This document shows positions 12,732 to 56,367 of a stretch of 64,000 bases of DNA, piece by piece. How positions within the stretch are numbered: position 1 is the first letter of the stretch; the number at the start of each line of letters is the position of its first letter. The stretch lies in sequence record PX969468.1; one strand, 5' to 3'. The notes under the pieces were generated by a model. The model was not told the DNA's origin. It did no database searches and saw nothing but the letters and a program-made list of their open reading frames with translations. Origin of the DNA: a phage. Position numbers and translations under genes: made by a program.

Positions 12732-13070
12732 ATGGCGGATACAACTAAAAAGCGTCGCCGTAGAGGCAGACCTCTGAAAGAGGAGTCCAACGCCATTCAG
12801 CTAGAGAAGAACATTCTTGATATGAAGGAATCTTTTATAGCGATGGTTCCAGAAGCTCACAAAGTTTTAAGAGAGCTGATGTTGGATCCGAAAACCAAGC
12901 AAAATATTCGTCAAAGCATTGCAGAGTATGTCCTTGATAAGGCAGACCGAATGCAGGAAGAATATGATGAGATGTTTGGTGAAGAGGAAGAGGTGGTAGT
13001 AGAAGAGGCTGAAAAACCAGCACCTTTTATGCCATTTACCACAGAGATACAGCCTGTTGGCAATAGTTAA
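12732..13070 (+). CDS. small AT-hook-like DNA-binding protein with acidic C-terminal tail
   Basis: 112 codons from the Met with GGAGG RBS; KKRRRRGRPLKEE (RGRP core) near N-terminus; C-terminus EEYDEMFGEEEEVVVEEAEK. Confidence 0.5.
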   Translation: MADTTKKRRRRGRPLKEESNAIQLEKNILDMKESFIAMVPEAHKVLRELMLDPKTKQNIRQSIAEYVLDKADRMQEEYDEMFGEEEEVVVEEAEKPAPFMPFTTEIQPVGNS

Positions 13071-13635: not shown

Positions 13636-13735
13636 GCTAGGTAAGCCCTTTGGCAAGGGCGAGGATTTTTAATCCTGAAAATAGACGAGGTAGTCGTTGA
13701 ATACATAGGTGGTTCGATTCCATCACCTAGCACCT
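13636..13735 (+). pseudogene. atypical tRNA-like element (Lys-TTT-like 5' half, ~30-nt insert, no encoded CCA)
   Basis: perfect 7-bp acceptor GCTAGGT/ACCTAGC, D-arm GCCC/GGGC, anticodon-like loop TTTTTAA, T-arm GGTGG-TTCGATT-CCATC, but about 30 nt between anticodon arm and T-arm and CCT instead of CCA. Confidence 0.3.
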
Positions 13736-14347: not shown

Positions 14348-14383
14348 CCGCCCCGTTAGCTGTATAGCTGCGGGGTTTTTTCG
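14348..14383 (+). terminator. rho-independent terminator
   Basis: stem CCCCG/CGGGG enclosing a palindromic loop, followed by TTTTTT. Confidence 0.55.
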
Positions 14384-14798: not shown

Positions 14799-15082
14799 GA
14801 GTTACTGCACTGGTTGTTTTGTGCTTGTTATTGTGTGGGTGTGCAACCAGCGTTGAGAGAGAATACAAGATTGACCCTCCGGATGTAGGAAGGTTGATTG
14901 TTAAACCTCCCGAGGGTGCTATGAAACCACCTGCTAAAGCTATCCCTTTGAAGAAAGGTGCGCCAGATGCGGTGAATTCTGGCATTATGAGGGATAATAA
15001 CCTGTCTTGTAGTAATGATAGAGCTAAATTGATCATTTTGCAAGACTATATAAGAACACTGTTTCCAAAGGAGAGAGGTTAA
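14795..15082 (+). CDS. o-spanin (Rz1-like outer-membrane lipoprotein)
   Basis: 95 codons; signal peptide with lipobox L-C-G-C, proline-rich mature part. Confidence 0.6.
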   Translation: MRVTALVVLCLLLCGCATSVEREYKIDPPDVGRLIVKPPEGAMKPPAKAIPLKKGAPDAVNSGIMRDNNLSCSNDRAKLIILQDYIRTLFPKERG

Positions 15083-15507
15083 TGTCTAAGATTTACGGAC
15101 CGTGTTCTGAAAAGCAGAAGATGATCCTAGAGAACGATGCAGATATTTTGGTGATCGGAGGTGCAGCTGGGTCTGGAAAGTCGTTCCTCTTGCAGCTAAT
15201 GCCACTTAAAATTATTGATGACCCACACAGCTCTGTGGTTATGTTCCGAAGAACAACTCCACAGTTGGAAGGTGAGGGTGGGCTATGGCCTAAAGCAGTA
15301 GCTATTTACAGTGATCTGCCTGAAAACATTAAACCAAAGTTCAGAGAGAAGGATCATAAGTTTATTTTTCCACGGTTTGATCCGAGCACTGGCAAGTGGG
15401 ACAGGAGCAAAAAAGGGGCCGTTGTAAAATACTGCCACATGGAGTATGTCCAAGATAAGCTTAACCATCAAGGCCTTGAGTACACCATGGTTTGCTTCGA
15501 TGAGGGT
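15082..15507 (+). CDS. terminase large subunit, exon 1 (ATPase domain)
   Basis: Walker A GGAAGSGKS and Walker B VCFDEG; reading frame stops at TAA immediately after DEG. Confidence 0.65.
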
Positions 15508-16390
15508 TAATTTGTAGCTCTCGTAAAACCTCCCTAATTGCGGGGAAATCTTTATTATTGACACCACCAACCTGTTATGGTAACATGATAGAGGCTTCGA
15601 AGAGAGATCGAAGGTATGGTAACAGTGTGTTGATTTAGATAATCCGCAGCGAAGCATCCGAGAGGATGAACGTTCAACGACTAGTCGAAAGACGTAGAAT
15701 CAAGCGATTCGAAACGGGAGGGTGAATGTGTAATACTAAAAAATGTATGGATTGCCAAAGAGTTCTACCTCTTGATGATTTCTTTTTATCATCTAAGAGC
15801 CAGGATGGATACTCAGGTACATGCAAGGAATGCTATATGTACTACAGGAAGAATGGATCTCGTAGAAACAAAAATATGGTTAAGAGAGATGATGCAGCAT
15901 CTTTTATTCAAGACTTACTGAAGAAAGGTGAGCTTTTTGAATGTAAATCTTGTCATGAAAGTATGCTTGCTGATAGTTTTTACACAAAACGCGACTATGG
16001 TAAAGTGTATCTAGTCACGAACAGGTGTAAGATGTGTGAAAAGTTTTATCAGATTGAGAAGAAATTTCACATAACAAAAGATGAATACTATCGTCTACTC
16101 TCAGATCAAGATCATAAGTGTGCAATCTGTAGAATATCTCTTGATGAGTATAAGACTCAAGGATATAGAGATTTCTTTTGTGTTGATCATGACCATAAAA
16201 CTGGTGCTGTAAGAGGGTTGCTTTGTGATAAATGCAACAGGGCTTTAGGTTTCTTCCAAGAGGATGAGGAAACCATTCTTAGAGCGGCAGAGTATTTACA
16301 CATTCATAAGATATAGTCTGGTCTGCATGGAGACATGCAGCTGCCTGAAAATGGCGGGGCAAGACTAGCGACCTTGCCCGAACATAAACG
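15508..16390 (+). mobile_element. group I-like intron carrying an HNH endonuclease gene, inserted in the terminase large-subunit gene
   Basis: P/Q/R-like core elements AATTGCGGGGA (15536..15546), AATCCGCAGC (15641..15650), GTTCAACGACTAG (15672..15684); possible guide GCTCTC (15517..15522) pairing with exon end GAGGGT; ends in G; 3' boundary could be 16387 or 16390. Confidence 0.55.
15726..16316 (+). CDS. HNH homing endonuclease (intron-encoded)
   Basis: 196 codons; GGGAGGG RBS; several CxxC pairs and HNH core CVDHDHKTGAVRGLLCDKCNRALG. Confidence 0.7.
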   Translation: MCNTKKCMDCQRVLPLDDFFLSSKSQDGYSGTCKECYMYYRKNGSRRNKNMVKRDDAASFIQDLLKKGELFECKSCHESMLADSFYTKRDYGKVYLVTNRCKMCEKFYQIEKKFHITKDEYYRLLSDQDHKCAICRISLDEYKTQGYRDFFCVDHDHKTGAVRGLLCDKCNRALGFFQEDEETILRAAEYLHIHKI

Positions 16391-17512
16391 ACGCAATTCG
16401 AATGGGAGCAGATAGACTATTTGATGTCTCGTCTGCGATCTCAGTCAAAGTATCCATCAAGAATGGTTATCAGCTGTAACCCCGACTCAGAACACATGCT
16501 TGCCAAACTGGTTAGGTGGTGGTTGGACGATGAAGGGTATCCAGATCCGGAGAAATGCGGTAAGAAAAGATATTTTATCCGACGCGACGGGGAATTTATC
16601 TGGGGAGATTCTAAAGAAGAGTTGATAGAGAAATACACCACGGTTAACGGACTTGGCGTAGAGATCAAGCCAAGACCGTTGTCATTCTCGTTCATAGGCG
16701 CAACAATATTCGATAATCCTGTCTGTTTGAGAGACAACCCAGAATACCTTGCTTTCCTCGAAGGTCTACCAGAGCTGGAAAAAGCTCAGCTTCTCCATGG
16801 TAACTGGTTTGCAAAGCCTGAGGGTGCAAACTATTTTCAAAGATCTTTCCTTCGTGATGCCGATAGAGTACCTCTTGGGTCAGTATCTTGCAGGGCATGG
16901 GATAAGGCAGGAACCGAGAGAACTTCCGGTAATAAATTTCCTGACTTTACTGCCAGTATTAAGGTAAGTAAAGATAGCGACGGATTTTATTACCTGTCCG
17001 GTGATTATTGTCCTGAGAACGTGGATGACGGGAGGTATTCCACAGGTCTGGAAGGCAAGTTCTGTAAAAAGGCTGGTGAACGAGATGTGATCATCAGGAA
17101 ACAGGCGCAGTTCGATGGTGATGATTGCATAATCGTCTTCTCTGTGGACCCAGGGCAGGCAGGTAAGAGTGAGTTCTTAACCTCCTCCAGATCCTTGCTT
17201 GCCGAAGGGTTCAGGGTTGAAGAAGACCCAATGCCTTCCAACAAGTCTAAACTGACAAGGTTCTCACCTTTTGCCAATCTTGCCCAACAAGGAATGGTGA
17301 GGATTGTAAAATCCAGTTTCCATCCTGATACTCTGGAAGCATTTCTGACTGAACTTGAAAAATTCAACGGGGAAAGATCAACATTTAACAGAAAAGACGA
17401 CTGGGCCGACTGCGTAGCTTCTGCGATTAATTTCCTGGAGAAAGAGGAGGTAGCACTTCCTTGTGTGATTCCATCAATCTCATCACCTTCTATGTTCAAG
17501 CGTTTTATCTAA
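16391..17512 (+). CDS. terminase large subunit, exon 2 (nuclease domain)
   Basis: in-frame continuation TQFEWEQIDYLMSRLRS without convincing start/RBS; joins exon 1 as ...VCFDEG|TQFEW... Confidence 0.55.
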   Translation, partial: TQFEWEQIDYLMSRLRSQSKYPSRMVISCNPDSEHMLAKLVRWWLDDEGYPDPEKCGKKRYFIRRDGEFIWGDSKEELIEKYTTVNGLGVEIKPRPLSFSFIGATIFDNPVCLRDNPEYLAFLEGLPELEKAQLLHGNWFAKPEGANYFQRSFLRDADRVPLGSVSCRAWDKAGTERTSGNKFPDFTASIKVSKDSDGFYYLSGDYCPENVDDGRYSTGLEGKFCKKAGERDVIIRKQAQFDGDDCIIVFSVDPGQAGKSEFLTSSRSLLAEGFRVEEDPMPSNKSKLTRFSPFANLAQQGMVRIVKSSFHPDTLEAFLTELEKFNGERSTFNRKDDWADCVASAINFLEKEEVALPCVIPSISSPSMFKRFI

Positions 17513-17523
17513 GTGTTGCCAAT

Positions 17524-17552
17524 CTTAATTAGATGTGGTACAATAAAGTAAT
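17524..17552 (+). promoter_or_regulatory. sigma70-like promoter TTGCCA-17-TACAAT with TG extension
   Basis: read directly upstream of portal gene. Confidence 0.45.
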
Positions 17553-17570
17553 TGGAGATACTAGCCCTCT

Positions 17571-17596
17571 GACGAGGGCTATTTTGTTATACTGTT
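17571..17596 (+). terminator. terminator-like hairpin AGCCCTC-TGAC-GAGGGCT + ATTTTGTT in portal leader
   Basis: perfect 7-bp stem and T-rich tail, located between the promoter-like site and the portal start. Confidence 0.45.
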
Positions 17597-17612
17597 TTGA
17601 GGGGTAAAGCTT

Positions 17613-19169
17613 GTGTCCAAAAAGAACCGCAGGAAACACAACGCCACAGCCAAAACTGTGAATAAATCTGGGAACGCAGGCGCACCAACTCATAATGTTC
17701 GTATGAGTGAGATCGGTTCTGGCGCACTTTCCCAAATTATGGCAGAATCGCAATCTATGATGGTTGAGGAATTGCGTTGGCCTCAGCTGATTGCCACAGT
17801 GGAGACTATGAAATGTGATTCCACAGTTGCTACTGCCTTAGATACAAAATATGTTTTCATCACGAAAGCATTCAATGATTTTAAGATCCTTTATAATGTT
17901 AAAAGTGAAGACTCTAAGAAAGCTGCCGAGCTTATAGAGTATTCTTTGCGTAATTTGGCAAACCAACAAACTCTTCGAGATATTGCAAGAAGCGCAGCTA
18001 CCTTTAACGAGTATGGTTTTTCACTGTTTGAGAAAGTATACCGCAGAGAGAAAGAAGGTAAATACGCCGGGATGCTTCTTATTGATAAAATTGCATTCCG
18101 ACCTCAGGCCAGTTTGTCCAGATCAGAGCCGTTTGTCTTTGACAAGAATAGTAGAACACTGACAGGTATTTATCAATCACCTAATGCATTTCTAAACACG
18201 CAGAATGCACGCTGGGCTGGTCCTCTTGCTGCAATGCCTTCAAAAGGCTTTAATGAGCCTGAAATTTTCATCCCTGCTAAAAAGCTTATGCTCATGACTC
18301 TGTCAGGAACAGAATCTAACCCTGCAGGTGTGTCACCAATGATAGGTTGCTACAGATCTTTCCGTGAGAAAGTCTTGATTGAAAACCTTGAGGTAGTTGG
18401 CTGCTCCAAAGACCTTGGTGGTGTGCTTGAGCTGAAAATTCCTTCCAATATTCTGAACAAGGCCAGCATTGACCCGAATTCAATGGAAGGGAGAATGGTT
18501 GCAGATCTTATGCTTGACGCAGCAAATGCCCATAGTGGGGAGCAAAGTTTCTTTATACTTCCGTCTGATAGAGATAAGTCTGGTAAAGAGCTTTACTCCA
18601 TGACCCTGAAGGGGGTTGATGGTATGGGCAAGCAGTATTCGACTAAAGATTTGATTGATGCCCGTAAGAAGGCGATTCTTGACCGTTTCGGTGCTGGCTT
18701 TATTAACCTCGGTAACGATAACGTTGGATCCTTCTCTCTGTCTGAGTCAAAACAGTCTATCCATGGTCATTTTGTTCAGCGTGATATAGATATTATCACT
18801 GAAGCCTTCAATAAGGATCTTATTCCACAGCTTCTGGCATTGAATGGTATCATCCTTGAAGATGATGATATGCCTAAACTGAAACCTGGTCTGATTGAAG
18901 AGGTGGACATGGAGAGCTTCTCCAAATTTGTCCAGAGGATCGGTGCTGTAGGTTACTTGCCAAAAACTCCTGCAGTAATTAATAAGATTCTTGAAGTAGG
19001 CGGGTTTGATGAAAGATTTGACGAGGACATGGATCAGGAAGAGCTGATGAAGCTCTTGGGCCAGGATATCAGTAGGGCTGGTGATGGAATGGCTGCAGGA
19101 TCCACTGGTAACGGCACTTCTAAGATGTCATCAACCAGAGATAATTCCATATCCAACATGGAAAATTAA
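17613..19169 (+). CDS. portal protein (probable)
   Basis: 518 codons, GTG start with GAGGGG RBS; position directly after terminase; size in portal range. Confidence 0.55.
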   Translation: MSKKNRRKHNATAKTVNKSGNAGAPTHNVRMSEIGSGALSQIMAESQSMMVEELRWPQLIATVETMKCDSTVATALDTKYVFITKAFNDFKILYNVKSEDSKKAAELIEYSLRNLANQQTLRDIARSAATFNEYGFSLFEKVYRREKEGKYAGMLLIDKIAFRPQASLSRSEPFVFDKNSRTLTGIYQSPNAFLNTQNARWAGPLAAMPSKGFNEPEIFIPAKKLMLMTLSGTESNPAGVSPMIGCYRSFREKVLIENLEVVGCSKDLGGVLELKIPSNILNKASIDPNSMEGRMVADLMLDAANAHSGEQSFFILPSDRDKSGKELYSMTLKGVDGMGKQYSTKDLIDARKKAILDRFGAGFINLGNDNVGSFSLSESKQSIHGHFVQRDIDIITEAFNKDLIPQLLALNGIILEDDDMPKLKPGLIEEVDMESFSKFVQRIGAVGYLPKTPAVINKILEVGGFDERFDEDMDQEELMKLLGQDISRAGDGMAAGSTGNGTSKMSSTRDNSISNMEN

Positions 19170-19188
19170 AAATTATCAACACAGGGGG

Positions 19189-19217
19189 TTGCAAAACCTC
19201 CTTTGGCGTGATAAAAT
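19189..19217 (+). promoter_or_regulatory. sigma70-like promoter TTGCAA-17-TAAAAT with TG extension
   Basis: read directly. Confidence 0.5.
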
Positions 19218-19236
19218 AATCCACATGGGGAATAAG

Positions 19237-19656
19237 ATGCCACAGGAAGAAATGATTTCCTACGAAATCATCTACGAGCCTGACACTAAAGATGCTCACG
19301 GTGAGTGGATGAGTAAAGACACCATCAAAAAGGCTAAAGATAACTGGGACGCAGCATACGCCGCAGGCCTAGTTTCTGAAAACCTTTTTCACTTGACCTC
19401 TACAGATGCTTTCACTATTGAAAAGACGTGGATTCAAGAAGAGTTTGATGTTGTAGTAATTGGCACTGAGCAGGTCATCAAGGCTGGCTCTTGGGTTGCT
19501 AAAGTTAAATACAATAATCCTGAACTATGGGAAGCTAAGAAGGCTGGCATTGTTGGTGGCCTAAGCATTCAGGCAACAGGTAATGTTGATGAAGAAACTG
19601 GTGAAATTACCAACGTAAACTTCGGGATCAGTGTTGTAGAAGAGGGCAATGAATAA
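19237..19656 (+). CDS. head morphogenesis protein, possible prohead protease-like
   Basis: 139 codons from Met with GGGGA RBS (track ORF begins inside portal); position between portal and scaffold; weak GLSIQ motif. Confidence 0.3.
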   Translation: MPQEEMISYEIIYEPDTKDAHGEWMSKDTIKKAKDNWDAAYAAGLVSENLFHLTSTDAFTIEKTWIQEEFDVVVIGTEQVIKAGSWVAKVKYNNPELWEAKKAGIVGGLSIQATGNVDEETGEITNVNFGISVVEEGNE

Positions 19657-20633
19657 TGTCTGAAAAAACGATTACTATTAAAGAGAAGGGGATTGCCCTG
19701 TGCCATAAGGCGCAAGGCTATAGCGCTAACAACAGACCTGTATCTCTTTTGATGAAGAGTGATCTTAAGCCTGAGCAGTTAACAGACGACATTGTTAAGG
19801 CACTTCGCCAAGTTACTGTGGAGCTTAGTTTTGAAGAATACCTGCGTCGTTTCTTCGATATGTGGTATGATGATGCTAAAGCACTTGCACACATGCTTGG
19901 TTTTGAGATTGAAGAGGAGGCTTGGGCTAAAGAGCATCCTGATTGGGAATGGGCGCAAGCTGACGCAGAGTCTTGTATTGCATGGCTGGAAGAGCGTTGT
20001 GATAACGTGACCATTCATAAAGCTGCAAAAGAAGGCAAACAGCTTAGTGTGGTAGATCAATACAGCCTGTTAAAAACACAACAGATTTTTGAACAAGTAA
20101 CCGCTGATCTCTTCGATAAAGAAGGGAACCTGATCAAGGCGGTACAGGAACCTGCTGAGGTGGATAAAACTACCGAGGTGGATGATGTTGCAAAATCCGC
20201 AAATACCGAGGAGAATCCGGTGGACGTAACCAAAACTAAAGAGTATCTGGATCTGCTGAAGCAAGTAGAAGAGCTGAAAGCAACCCAGAGTAAAGCTGAA
20301 GAAATCATCAAGGCCCAGGTTGAAGTTGAAAAAGCTAAAATGCTGACTAAGGCTCAAGCTTTAAGCTTTGTTGGTGAAGAAGATCACGCAACCCTGGTTG
20401 ACTTCATGCTGGAAAAAGCTAACGAACCTATCGTAGCTATGCTGGAGAAAGCTCAAGCAAAAATTGAAGAGCTGGAAGCAGAGGTGCATAAAACTAAAGA
20501 AGAGTTTGCCACCACTGAACATGGTAATGATGGCGAACCTGTTGTGGATGATATTGCAAAATCCGCAGAAGAAATTCTTGCTGAAAACGTTGCAAAAGCA
20601 CTTGCTCGTGCACGTGCAGAATCTGCCAAATAA
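19656..20633 (+). CDS. scaffolding protein (probable)
   Basis: 325 codons; highly charged, alanine/glutamate/lysine-rich, coiled-coil-like; immediately upstream of decoration and capsid genes. Confidence 0.5.
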   Translation: MSEKTITIKEKGIALCHKAQGYSANNRPVSLLMKSDLKPEQLTDDIVKALRQVTVELSFEEYLRRFFDMWYDDAKALAHMLGFEIEEEAWAKEHPDWEWAQADAESCIAWLEERCDNVTIHKAAKEGKQLSVVDQYSLLKTQQIFEQVTADLFDKEGNLIKAVQEPAEVDKTTEVDDVAKSANTEENPVDVTKTKEYLDLLKQVEELKATQSKAEEIIKAQVEVEKAKMLTKAQALSFVGEEDHATLVDFMLEKANEPIVAMLEKAQAKIEELEAEVHKTKEEFATTEHGNDGEPVVDDIAKSAEEILAENVAKALARARAESAK

Positions 20634-22126: not shown

Positions 22127-22155
22127 GGGGAGGGGGTTCTCCCCTCCCCTTTTTA
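22127..22155 (+). terminator. strong rho-independent terminator after capsid gene
   Basis: stem GGGGAGGGGG/CCCCTCCCC with 4-nt loop then TTTTT. Confidence 0.7.
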
Positions 22156-23019: not shown

Positions 23020-23056
23020 GGCCCCTTCCAAATCAGGAATGGGGCTTTATTTTTAC
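23020..23056 (+). terminator. terminator-like hairpin
   Basis: stem GCCCC/GGGGC with long loop followed by TTTATTTTT. Confidence 0.4.
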
Positions 23057-27145: not shown

Positions 27146-27175
27146 GCCTCACCTTCGGGTGGGGCTTTTTGCTTT
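27146..27175 (+). terminator. rho-independent terminator
   Basis: stem GCCTCACC/GGTGGGGC with TTCG loop and TTTTT. Confidence 0.6.
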
Positions 27176-27217: not shown

Positions 27218-27246
27218 TTGACAATGCACCATAATCATGGTAAAAT
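27218..27246 (+). promoter_or_regulatory. sigma70-like promoter TTGACA-17-TAAAAT with TGG extension
   Basis: read directly. Confidence 0.6.
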
Positions 27247-27289
27247 ACACAAATATGGTGCACAACATGACTAATAAGGATGCTATAAA

Positions 27290-28028: not shown

Positions 28029-28064
28029 GGGCCGGATTCCTTTTCTGGGATCTGGCCCTTTTTA
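28029..28064 (+). terminator. terminator-like hairpin
   Basis: stem GGGCCGG/CTGGCCC followed by TTTTTATT. Confidence 0.45.
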
Positions 28065-54586: not shown

Positions 54587-56332
54587 ATGGCGCAAGACAT
54601 GACAAGCTTCGAGCAGGCGGTAGATCAAGTAATTGTTGATTCTGAACGTTTGCACTTGATTGTCAACGGTAACGCTGTGGATGAAGTTGTCGTAGAGGAT
54701 GGGACCACCATCCCTACGGTACGAAAAGCCATGCTTGACACCCTTTATTTTAAAACGCCACCAATCCCTTGGGCGTATGGTGCATCCACAACAGTTTTTA
54801 ACCAGTTGTATGAGTTTAAAGGGGATACAGGCACTCAGTGGTGGTATGCCCCAGCAGCATCAAAATCTAACCCGGTTAGGATGCCAGCAGATCCTTCACA
54901 ATCTCCGAACTGGAGATTATATACCGATTCTGCAGTAATGGCAAAATACTACGCAAAACTTAACAGTCCAAGGTTCGAAGGTGACCCGAGAGCACCTACA
55001 CCTCCAATGGACGATAAGTCCGAGTCTATAGCAAACACAGAGTTTGTTGTTGACTATGTGGATAGTATATTCAAAGCCATGGAGGGGATGAAAGTAACTG
55101 TAGGGTCTTTGGTAGTAAAAGGTCTTACAGAACTGGCTAACACCATAGTTGGTGGCACCCTTACCATACACGGGCCTGTTAATGGAGCGGATTCTACTGC
55201 ACGCTTCAGGAACCTAATCCTTACTGCAAATACTTCTACACTAACTTTTGCGTGGAGCGATCCTAAGCATGCCGACTGGAGAAGCACAGAGCTGCAACCT
55301 CATGAAGTATCCACCCACAGAGTTATAGCCGACACTATAACCTCTGGGAAACCAGTGGCTAATAACAACGATGTGCATTTTGACGGTCTAGGTAATAACT
55401 TTTTTGACTACGTGTACATTCGTGGTAATGCCATGAAGGCAGCAACCGAACCGACATTGCAGGTCGATGGGACCACTAGGGTTAAGAACCTTGAGGTGAC
55501 AGGTACCGTTACAGGGATAACCTACTCTGTCGATGGCACCATGATCTACCCTAGCTATATTGAAAGCACGGGTGACGCATTAATAAATGGTGATTTGGAG
55601 GTTGGCGGGTCTGTAGTTATTCGAGGTACGGCCTCTATCCAAAACATAGCTCTGAATACTCTCAGAGTCAATGAGCGTGCAACTTTTGAAGGAGAAGGGC
55701 TTACAGCCAACAAAGGTGTAATTACCGAGCTGACAACCACCACTTTAACTGCAACAACTGCAAACTCTGAAAACTGCAACGTTACCAGAAACTTGCAGGT
55801 AAATGGGGATGTTAGTTTAAACGCAGCAGGTACGGGCACCACCTACCTTCACAACCTTGAAATATCCGGCACAGTGACTGGTTGGCTGCCAGACTTCTCT
55901 AATGTCAACTTTGTCTGTAATGGTATTAACTCTAGTGGTAAGATAACCACCTCTCAAGAAATTGAGGCTGGTAAAACCATCACTGCCCCTACTTTCCACG
56001 CAGGGAAGGTAGATTTCGATTTAGAGGAGGTTGACGCGTCCAGTGGGACATGGACACCTAACGGGCAGGCCAGTATGTATGTTGTCCACGCTAAAGGGGA
56101 TTTTACAATAGGCCAATGGCCTGGAACATCGGCTGAAGATAAACCTTACCCGTTTACTGCAATCATCTATGTCATTCAAGATGCCGTAGGCCACAACGTG
56201 ACTTTGCACGATAAATATGCCATACTGTCGGCTACCCCTGTTATTAACAACAAAGCCAACAGCGTCACCTTGCTACAATTGACATATTGTGGTGTTGGTG
56301 ATATCGTAGATGTGGTTATTGCACAACGTTAA
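54587..56332 (+). CDS. tail fibre protein
   Basis: 581 codons; motif KLNSPRFEGDPRAPTPP resembling the conserved tail-fibre motif; Gly/Thr/Asn-rich repeats. Confidence 0.55.
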   Translation: MAQDMTSFEQAVDQVIVDSERLHLIVNGNAVDEVVVEDGTTIPTVRKAMLDTLYFKTPPIPWAYGASTTVFNQLYEFKGDTGTQWWYAPAASKSNPVRMPADPSQSPNWRLYTDSAVMAKYYAKLNSPRFEGDPRAPTPPMDDKSESIANTEFVVDYVDSIFKAMEGMKVTVGSLVVKGLTELANTIVGGTLTIHGPVNGADSTARFRNLILTANTSTLTFAWSDPKHADWRSTELQPHEVSTHRVIADTITSGKPVANNNDVHFDGLGNNFFDYVYIRGNAMKAATEPTLQVDGTTRVKNLEVTGTVTGITYSVDGTMIYPSYIESTGDALINGDLEVGGSVVIRGTASIQNIALNTLRVNERATFEGEGLTANKGVITELTTTTLTATTANSENCNVTRNLQVNGDVSLNAAGTGTTYLHNLEISGTVTGWLPDFSNVNFVCNGINSSGKITTSQEIEAGKTITAPTFHAGKVDFDLEEVDASSGTWTPNGQASMYVVHAKGDFTIGQWPGTSAEDKPYPFTAIIYVIQDAVGHNVTLHDKYAILSATPVINNKANSVTLLQLTYCGVGDIVDVVIAQR

Positions 56333-56340
56333 TATATCTG

Positions 56341-56367
56341 ACCGCTCCTGACGGGGCGGTTTTCTTA
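56341..56367 (+). terminator. terminator-like hairpin
   Basis: stem CCGCTCC/GGGGCGG, loop TGAC, then TTTTCTT. Confidence 0.45.

Follow-up and report, generated by a model that had tools for sequence, protein, structure and literature searches.

A conserved promoter and hairpin between terL and the portal gene of a Vequintavirus, most likely an ordinary operon-boundary signal

In sequence record PX969468.1, a 64,000-nucleotide (nt) stretch of phage DNA (hereafter, the window), a promoter and a terminator-like hairpin lie, in this order, inside the gap between terL, the gene for the terminase large subunit, and the portal gene. The window belongs to a Vequintavirus, i.e., an rV5-like Escherichia coli myovirus: over positions 15000-20000 it shares 96.5-98% identity with Bas51 WalterGehring, rV5_ev variants and others among the matches listed, and 261 nt around the junction are 100% identical to phage rV5. 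The junction signal is real but most likely a largely ordinary, and mechanistically ordinary, operon-boundary signal. Among therapeutic phages of E. coli, Vequintaviruses and the related phi92-like and phAPEC8-like phages count as some of those isolated most often, and we found no experimental map of late-gene timing for these groups in the literature. The junction offers a compact, conserved test case for whether "late" promoters are nothing more than host promoters of the extended -10 type, whether late-gene hairpins are leaky terminators or RNA-stability elements, and whether any antitermination is involved.

Several known systems contain parts of this arrangement. The E. coli ompA leader and the T7 phi10/gene 10 leader carry 5'-terminal stabilising stem-loops on highly expressed structural-gene mRNA. 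Hairpins at the same junction in Stephanstirmvirinae phages (see below) are comparable, with predicted positions of about +2 to +5 on the assumption of a start about 7 nt past the -10 element, whereas the hairpin in the window is predicted to begin at about +12 and has a terminator-type U tail. T7 T-phi, located after the capsid gene, is a partial intra-operon terminator that sets gene dosage. It shares with the portal hairpin, and with five others in the window, the placement of a hairpin terminator inside a late unit which must be passed for downstream essential genes to be expressed; it differs in that here the host polymerase is presumed to act and the nearest promoter is just 17 nt upstream of the hairpin.

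The phage lambda pR'/tR'/Q system likewise has a late-operon promoter closely trailed by an intrinsic terminator before the morphogenesis genes. In the window, however, the terminator would span about +12 to +40 rather than lie near +190, the pause element is a weak resemblance, and conditional read-through is hypothetical; no Q-like gene is annotated in Bas51 or was detected in the five upstream open reading frames (ORFs) scanned, a search that was not an exhaustive profile search. The nearest named composite is the PeSL cassette of T4-like phages, a stem-loop just upstream of its own promoter (Arbiol 2010; Comeau 2014, PMC4122927). The portal junction is similar in that a compact intergenic sigma70-like promoter and a terminator stem-loop stand directly before a Shine-Dalgarno (SD) sequence, but the promoter precedes the stem-loop and the feature that defines a PeSL is missing. 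The PeSL layout is found instead at four other late junctions in the window. In addition, BLAST identified no paralogous copy in the window of the 100-nt cassette, which is thus not a repeated mobile cassette. In its working, the portal junction would most resemble a partial intra-operon terminator joined to a leader stem-loop at the 5' end, and elements of either kind are known.

Layout of the terL–portal junction

The gap measures 100 nt, from the TAA stop of terL exon 2 (17510-17512; ORF 16421..17512, annotated as terL in Bas51, rV5 and others) to the GTG start of the portal gene (17613..19169), which heads the head module (portal, protease, scaffold, decoration and major capsid); all of these features are on the plus strand. 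The promoter scan places the -35 hexamer, TTGCCA, at 17516-17521 within a block, GTTGCCAATCT (17515..17525), whose 11 nt are identical in a sister clade represented by contig L016. The extended -10 element, TGGTACAATA (17536..17545), includes TG at 17536-17537 and TACAAT at 17539-17544. As starts usually lie about 7 nt past the -10 element, transcription is predicted to start near 17550-17552, in an initially transcribed region (17545..17561) which alignments show not to be conserved between clades. The hairpin (17562..17581) is composed of the 5' arm TAGCCCTC (17562-17569), the loop TGAC (17570-17573) and the 3' arm GAGGGCTA (17574-17581); its core 7-bp stem, AGCCCTC/GAGGGCT, occupies 17563-17569 and 17574-17580, and T17562-A17581 forms the eighth pair. 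The U-rich tail, TTTTGTTATACTGTTTT (17582..17598), reads TTTTGTTATA from 17582 onwards and is rich in T in the two Vequintavirus-type clades alike; an SD, GAGGGG (17599..17604), lies 8 nt upstream of the portal start.

A preliminary description of the locus had reported TTGCCA-17-TACAAT followed by a perfect 7-bp AGCCCTC-TGAC-GAGGGCT hairpin with a T-rich tail. All of these strings are present in the sequence; its coordinates, save for the portal GTG at 17613, run 8 nt too high. As a result, the promoter was said to begin at 17524, and the true -35 hexamer falls outside the range it covered. The separation of promoter and hairpin, put there at about 20 nt, is 17 nt when counted from the end of the -10 element to the stem.

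Both elements have been predicted before, in rV5. Kropinski et al. (2013, Virol J 10:76, PMC3606486, Additional file 4) list P064, TCTTAATTAGATGTGGTACAATAAAGTAATTGGAGAT, as one of eight putative late promoters derived with MEME (consensus TggTAaAAtA) and t064ABC, GCCCTCTGACGAGGGCTATTTTGTTAT, as a Rho-independent terminator with a predicted dG of -11.5, the weakest of 20 in their Table S4; both are placed between terL and gene 64 (portal). The window sequences are identical to P064 and t064ABC and have the same position: the promoter and the hairpin are a rediscovery of two published predictions. Where that table pairs a late promoter with a terminator, the terminator comes first at every site but P064/t064ABC, which alone is reversed. 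The two elements are listed separately in these tables, as predictions, and their order, conservation and distribution are not raised there. The terminator is annotated in GenBank records DQ832317, MK373780, KT001917 and MT682716 (which include rV5, HdK5, Murica and Gotham); the Gotham record has both promoter and terminator at these positions, the rV5 record the terminator alone. What the present analysis adds is that both elements are under selection, that most other relatives examined have a compact junction instead, and that the same order occurs in a second subfamily.

The -35 hexamer matches TTGACA at 5/6 positions and is invariant in nine haplotypes from two clades; with the 17-bp spacer and TGG-TACAAT, the promoter matches the sigma70 consensus at 10/12 positions overall in the promoter scan. 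The -10 variants, TAGAAT, TGT-TACAAT and TGTTACAAT, all keep A2, T6 and the TG. The portal promoter TGGTACAATA at 17536 conforms to the rV5 late-promoter motif TggTAaAAtA. A motif of this type, TGKTAVAATA, has six copies in the window, all on the plus strand and all in late-gene intergenic gaps, compared with 1.2 expected by chance; six copies were reached in 0/100 shuffles. Loose matches are far less telling. In 15 kb, 43 loose sigma70 matches were seen (27 expected), as were 20 loose hairpins (12 expected), and three plus-strand pairs of a loose promoter and a following hairpin compare with about 3-4 by chance, a rough arithmetic estimate from 82 plus-strand promoter-like sites, an estimated 35 or so unique hairpins and an 80-nt window. 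Finding a loosely matching promoter and a loosely matching hairpin together has no significance by itself; the TGKTAVAATA motif and the two conserved elements are clearly non-random. A second promoter using GATACT as its -10 element was considered and rejected, as it has neither a -35 hexamer nor a TG.

The hairpin has 8 bp (five of them G-C), a 4-nt loop and a dG of -13.2 kcal/mol, with the U-tract UUUUGUUAU directly 3' of the stem. Its tail score is 4.05 and its d-score, computed with a formula after d'Aubenton-Carafa 1990, is 20.5, i.e., positive yet near the bottom of the window's positive scores. By published and recomputed measures alike, it is a weak terminator. The element is unidirectional, as the minus strand lacks a T run after the stem; a role on that strand was also rejected, as the two overlapping ORFs there (17529-17753 and 17587-17727) are short and run antisense to portal. 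The string AGCCCTC-loop-GAGGGCTATTT is shared by at least 120 viral contigs that are unrelated, which makes the stem a generic sequence of terminator type and not a signature. The 10 matches to GTTGCCAATCT-N11-15-TGNTANAAT in viral contigs are due to chance and were discarded, the true gap being 10 nt.

In three contexts (RNA from the predicted start, RNA reading in from terL and RNA extended into portal), the hairpin forms with a pairing probability of 0.97-0.99, and no competing antiterminator fold was found in promoter-initiated, read-through or long RNAs. A promoter-initiated RNA would have just about 11 nt, not conserved, ahead of the hairpin. There is no ATG or GTG between 17551 and 17612, and the sequence across the sole leader-ORF candidate, a 6-codon TTG-started frame, has diverged in the L016 sister clade. 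Rfam gave no match at the junction, either at the gathering threshold over the whole window or at E<=1 over 15400-17750, the only hits being tRNAs and the terL group I intron. These results leave a classical attenuator, one of the roles first suggested for the promoter and hairpin, unsupported: pairing probability is at least 0.97 in every RNA context, with no alternative fold and no conserved leader ORF.

When the 46 strong promoter-like sites in the window are ranked by structure in the first 40 transcribed nt, P064 comes second (-14.2 kcal/mol, compared with a median of -4.2). From motif to start codon the leader measures 77 nt, whereas typical late leaders measure 27-52 nt; the hairpin with its tail makes up the difference. 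In the SD region, 16 nt TGAGGGGTAAAGCTTG of the leader (17598-17613 on the plus strand, from SD to start codon) recur at 8403-8388 on the minus strand, in an RNA-ligase-like ORF where they encode MRGKAW; with a BLAST E of 0.005 for the 15-nt core, this is probably coincidence.

Conservation and distribution

Junctions were gathered through portal protein matches in IMG/VR and metagenomes, a procedure blind to intergenic sequence, and the gap was then measured. In rV5-type genomes, it is always 100-102 nt. A sister clade (contigs L016-L019, L179, L194 and L196), with portal proteins 82-83% identical, has a gap of 101 nt and the same layout: ATAG-TTGCCA-ATCTCTGTTGAATGTGT-TACAAT-AGTCTATAGAGCACAATATA-AGCCCTC-TTCG-GAGGGCT-ATTTCTTTTGTC...GAGGG...GTG. 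At fourfold-degenerate sites of the flanking genes, the window and the sister clade are identical at 30/76 and 64/171 positions (37-39%), which is essentially saturated. Against this background, GTTGCCAATCT, ATGTG.TACAATA, AGCCCTC, GAGGGCTATTT and TTGAGGG are identical in both clades; these blocks take in the SD and the two arms of the stem with TATTT. Divergence has affected the stretch of 17-20 nt from the -10 element to the stem, including the 11-14 nt just upstream of the hairpin, as well as the loop and the distal tail; of the U-rich tail, only the first bases (ATTT) are conserved in sequence across clades, although its T-richness is kept. Blocks that stay identical while neutral sites are saturated place both the promoter and the hairpin under purifying selection.

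Variation within the conserved parts is limited. The -10 element of the rV5 group is TACAAT or TAGAAT, and the stem is invariant apart from a single A-U to G-U change in one contig of that group. The loop varies: TGAC, TGAT, TGACAC and TAACAC are found in the rV5 group and TTCG in the sister clade. No compensatory double change occurs among the nine Vequintavirus-type haplotypes, and because the stem is invariant the covariation test is uninformative. Fixed arms, a loop free in length and sequence, and a tolerated wobble pair would fit an RNA stem better than a DNA palindrome with fixed spacing. Purifying selection on both parts, together with the lack of any ORF between the elements in 119 phage records and all metagenomic loci, led us to reject an empty moron or deleted-gene scar; on these sequence comparisons a neutral scar is unlikely. 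In two contigs there is an extra insertion near the terL 3' end, about 940 nt before it in L019 and about 400 nt before it in L185; the L019 insertion contains an open reading frame, and both are further intron or homing-endonuclease polymorphisms adjoining the junction.

In other Vequintavirinae genera, only 9-18 nt separate the terL stop from the portal GTG, leaving room for just an SD such as CAGAGGGGATAACTC. This compact junction is found in Mydovirus, Seunavirus, TH18-like phages, Certrevirus and more than 30 metagenomic loci (portal identity 46-72%), and an SD of the type AGAGGGGA or CAGGGGA is all there is between terL and portal in the genera without the module. Two loci have apparently longer gaps, 85 nt in L037 and 397 nt in L185, the latter ending in a compact junction behind its extra insertion. 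Farther away, the gap is 23 nt in Aeromonas phiA019, 16 nt in the Felix O1-like Alf5 and 10 nt in Nankokuvirus PS24. The compact junction is the common state among the relatives examined.

The module reappears in Stephanstirmvirinae, whose portal proteins are 41-42% identical. Eight distinct junction sequences, from phi92-like (Nernie, KP13-26, Tr1, L209, L210, L211) and phAPEC8-like (nieznany, phiWec190) phages, have a gap of 97-103 nt and the same order: stop, 3 nt, TTGACA, 17-18 nt, a mostly TG-extended -10 element, 8-11 nt, a GC-rich hairpin of different sequence, SD and GTG. In every lineage that has the module, the -35 hexamer begins 3-4 nt past the terL stop. Across the six phi92-like sequences, compensatory changes are seen at two of eight stem pairs (A-U replaced by G-C, and C-G by U-A), and the two phAPEC8-like stems, although extensively different, both pair. 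The hairpin is annotated as a terminator in one Phapecoctavirus record; at the homologous position, several Stephanstirmvirinae have a poor U-tract. Either the module is ancestral, with several losses, or it was gained twice. Promoters have arisen at this junction elsewhere too: Pseudoalteromonas phage J2-1 has TTGACA-17-TATAAT in a 69-nt terL–portal gap, without a hairpin.

Two observations concern these relatives. In the gaps of L199-L204 and L209-L212, AAAGT/ACTTT words are repeated around the promoter in direct and inverted orientation (e.g., CACTTTAAAGTG); they overlap the spacer, the -10 element and the start region and might constitute a regulator-binding site. In addition, about 18 GenBank MG0656xx records named "Campylobacter phage" (H10-H13, H27-H29 and others) are 97-100% identical to this E. 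coli Vequintavirus group, other records with this name match the phi92-like and phAPEC8-like groups, and their host labels look doubtful.

Mechanism and alternatives

The reading that we prefer, with a probability of about 0.5, is a constitutive boundary module in which two separately selected signals are combined: a real extended -10 promoter for the head-operon mRNA and a leaky terL terminator that would also serve as the leader stem-loop of the head mRNA. Host RNA polymerase of the sigma70 type would recognise this member of the TGGTAaAATA late set and start the head-gene mRNA about 60 nt before the portal GTG, presumably late in infection. The 8-bp GC-rich hairpin and its U-rich tail, at about +12 to +31, would be a weak, leaky intrinsic terminator: it would form in spanin-terL transcripts and protect their 3' end while a fraction of polymerases passes. 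Being downstream of the promoter, the hairpin would be copied into the 5' leader of every promoter-initiated transcript; these transcripts would read through it, and the leader stem-loop probably stabilises the mRNA. Switching between alternative RNA folds would play no part. A terminator of the terminase transcript with an overlapping promoter had been proposed at the outset; the terminator agrees with the rV5 annotation and with conservation, whereas the promoter precedes the hairpin and does not overlap it.

Leaky termination would be in keeping with the rest of the window, where the late gaps with hairpins are of two classes. In Class A, a late promoter comes after the terminator, and the next start is 50-124 nt away from the hairpin; the four examples are at 27146, 30423, 41324 and 46832. 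In Class B, the hairpin is 19-33 nt before the next start, without room for a promoter. Its six members are found before the spanins and terL (14351-14375), before portal (17562-17581), after the major capsid gene (22127-22149), before the tail capping gene (23021-23045), before the tape-measure gene (28029-28058) and before the last tail-fibre gene (56342-56359). The portal hairpin differs from the other five, which have no promoter between hairpin and gene, by its promoter 17 nt upstream. Given the essential genes behind Class B hairpins, read-through of terminator-like hairpins would be routine in this phage. The suggestion that only at the portal does a hairpin lie downstream of a promoter-like site holds among the six late-motif promoters, as the other five have no leader hairpin; a mechanical scan does return a second plus-strand pair, 56279-56307 followed by 56340-56361. 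There, TTGACA-17-TATCGT with a TG (10/12) lies inside the 3' end of a tail-fibre coding region, and the terminator hairpin 33 nt later corresponds to rV5 t028 and likewise has a TGAC loop.

Several points weigh against the preferred reading. A terminator downstream of its own promoter discards part of that promoter's output, and the window's four remaining terminator/promoter cassettes are arranged the other way round; the order at the portal junction therefore calls for a reason. Stems in the Vequintavirus clades begin 17-20 nt past the -10 element, so that about 11-14 nt at the 5' end would be unpaired, and 5'-end protection generally tolerates only a few. The lack of compensatory stem changes despite saturated divergence makes sequence-specific recognition possible, and the poor U-tract in several Stephanstirmvirinae means that termination may not be the shared function. 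Finally, we found no transcript or promoter mapping in rV5-like, Vequintavirinae or Stephanstirmvirinae phages in the literature.

The main rival, which we regard as possible though doubtful, holds that the hairpin is chiefly a 5' leader element of the head-operon mRNA and terminates little: it would act as a stabilising stem-loop and/or keep the U-rich SD region single-stranded, the U-rich stretch being a translation enhancer and no terminator tail. T7 provides a precedent, in that the phi10 leader forms a 5'-terminal stem-loop on capsid-gene mRNA. The conservation of promoter-then-hairpin order across two subfamilies and the exceptional structure of the first 40 nt after P064 are both expected from a leader element; so is the covarying phi92-like/phAPEC8-like stem, which begins only 8-11 nt after the -10 element and which in several lineages lacks a usable U-tract. 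In the Vequintavirus-type clades the signals point the other way, since in both a T-rich tail follows the stem directly and gives terminator scores, and in the window about 11 nt are predicted to be unpaired before the stem. Moreover, the five other late-motif promoters in the window lack a leader hairpin of this kind.

A regulated gate is unlikely. The promoter would again be constitutive, but most RNAs would stop at the hairpin, at about 40 nt, until a phage factor confers termination resistance late in infection; in a variant that resembles lambda pR'-tR' with Q, a sigma-dependent promoter-proximal pause would load this factor. The conserved position of a terminator-like hairpin immediately after the promoter and the many late genes that lie behind hairpins needing read-through are consistent with a gate. 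So is a -10-like hexamer between start and stem, in the same place in both clades: GATACT (17557-17562) in the window and CACAAT in the L016 clade, with natural variants nearer the consensus in L175 (GATAAT) and L194 (CATAAT). Yet hexamers with 4/6 matches are expected by chance in AT-rich DNA, the hairpin is weak, and no hairpin lies downstream of the other late promoters close to consensus (27238, 46886). The annotation of the whole genome of Bas51, a close relative, includes no antiterminator, and PHROG and Pfam scans of the five upstream ORFs found no antiterminator family, although this search was not exhaustive over the approximately 230 genes. Extending the idea to one conserved head-gene gate common to Vequintavirus and the phi92-like/phAPEC8-like Stephanstirmvirinae, with an early stop at the hairpin, resistance conferred later by a phage factor and possibly pause loading at the -10-like hexamer, makes it somewhat less probable again; large virulent myoviruses with no recognisable Q protein would then possess a late switch of the lambda-Q kind.

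Little more can be said for the view that only the hairpin matters, as the terL terminator, and that the promoter-like site is unused in vivo, portal being expressed by read-through from upstream. The excess of loose sigma70 matches (43 compared with 27 expected in 15 kb) and the annotation of the terminator alone in the rV5 GenBank record would suit it. The perfect conservation of the -35 block and of TGnTACAATA against a saturated neutral background, the confinement of the -10 motif to late intergenic gaps and the near-consensus promoters at this junction in independent lineages make it improbable. Most improbable of all is a role for the terminated RNA of about 38-40 nt as a small regulatory RNA, or for the palindrome as a DNA site for packaging or a dimeric protein: an 11-nt 5' tail, a terminator hairpin and a U tail do form a minimal Hfq-type layout, both stem arms are sequence-invariant and the element adjoins packaging genes, but the would-be seed is not conserved between clades, Rfam has no match, the loop length of 4 to 6 nt and the A-U to G-U change are at odds with a fixed-spacing palindrome, and AGCCCTC-loop-GAGGGCTATTT, with its at least 120 unrelated viral contigs, is generic.

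Neighbouring features

Downstream of the junction, directly after portal (19184-19217), a weak hairpin, GGGGGTTGCAAAACCTCC, with a poor U-tract precedes an extended -10 element, TGATAAAAT (19209), that lies ahead of the prohead protease gene. This gives the head module a second candidate promoter, and the Gotham record also has a promoter between portal and protease.

Upstream, the small terminase subunit has no annotation in these genomes. A plus-strand ORF at 12732-13070, ahead of the tRNA-spanin-terL block, encodes a 112-aa protein with an Arg-rich, AT-hook-like N-terminal KKRRRRGRP and an acidic C-terminus; its sole match is PHROG 3330 (unknown function), with none in Pfam. At 13636-13734 there is a 99-nt tRNA-like gene to which ARAGORN assigns a four-base anticodon (atcc) and which scores 35.5 bits in Rfam; its counterpart is called tRNA-OTHER in HdK5, and the 97-nt gene of Bas51 is apparently called tRNA-Lys. 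terL itself is split by a group I intron (15498-16340; RF00028, 48.3 bits, just below the gathering score of 50, E 1e-10) that carries a 196-aa endonuclease ORF (15726-16316) and a promoter-like TTGACA-17-TAACAT (15558-15586). Introns are known in rV5 terL, where the gene is in three pieces, so that intron content differs between close relatives.

Farther downstream, in the gap upstream of the gene that follows the tail tube gene, a perfect 8-bp inverted repeat, TGCACCAT (27225-27232) and ATGGTGCA (27255-27262), flanks the -10 element TGGTAAAATA of the near-consensus late promoter at 27238; the repeat could be an operator or an RNA leader stem.

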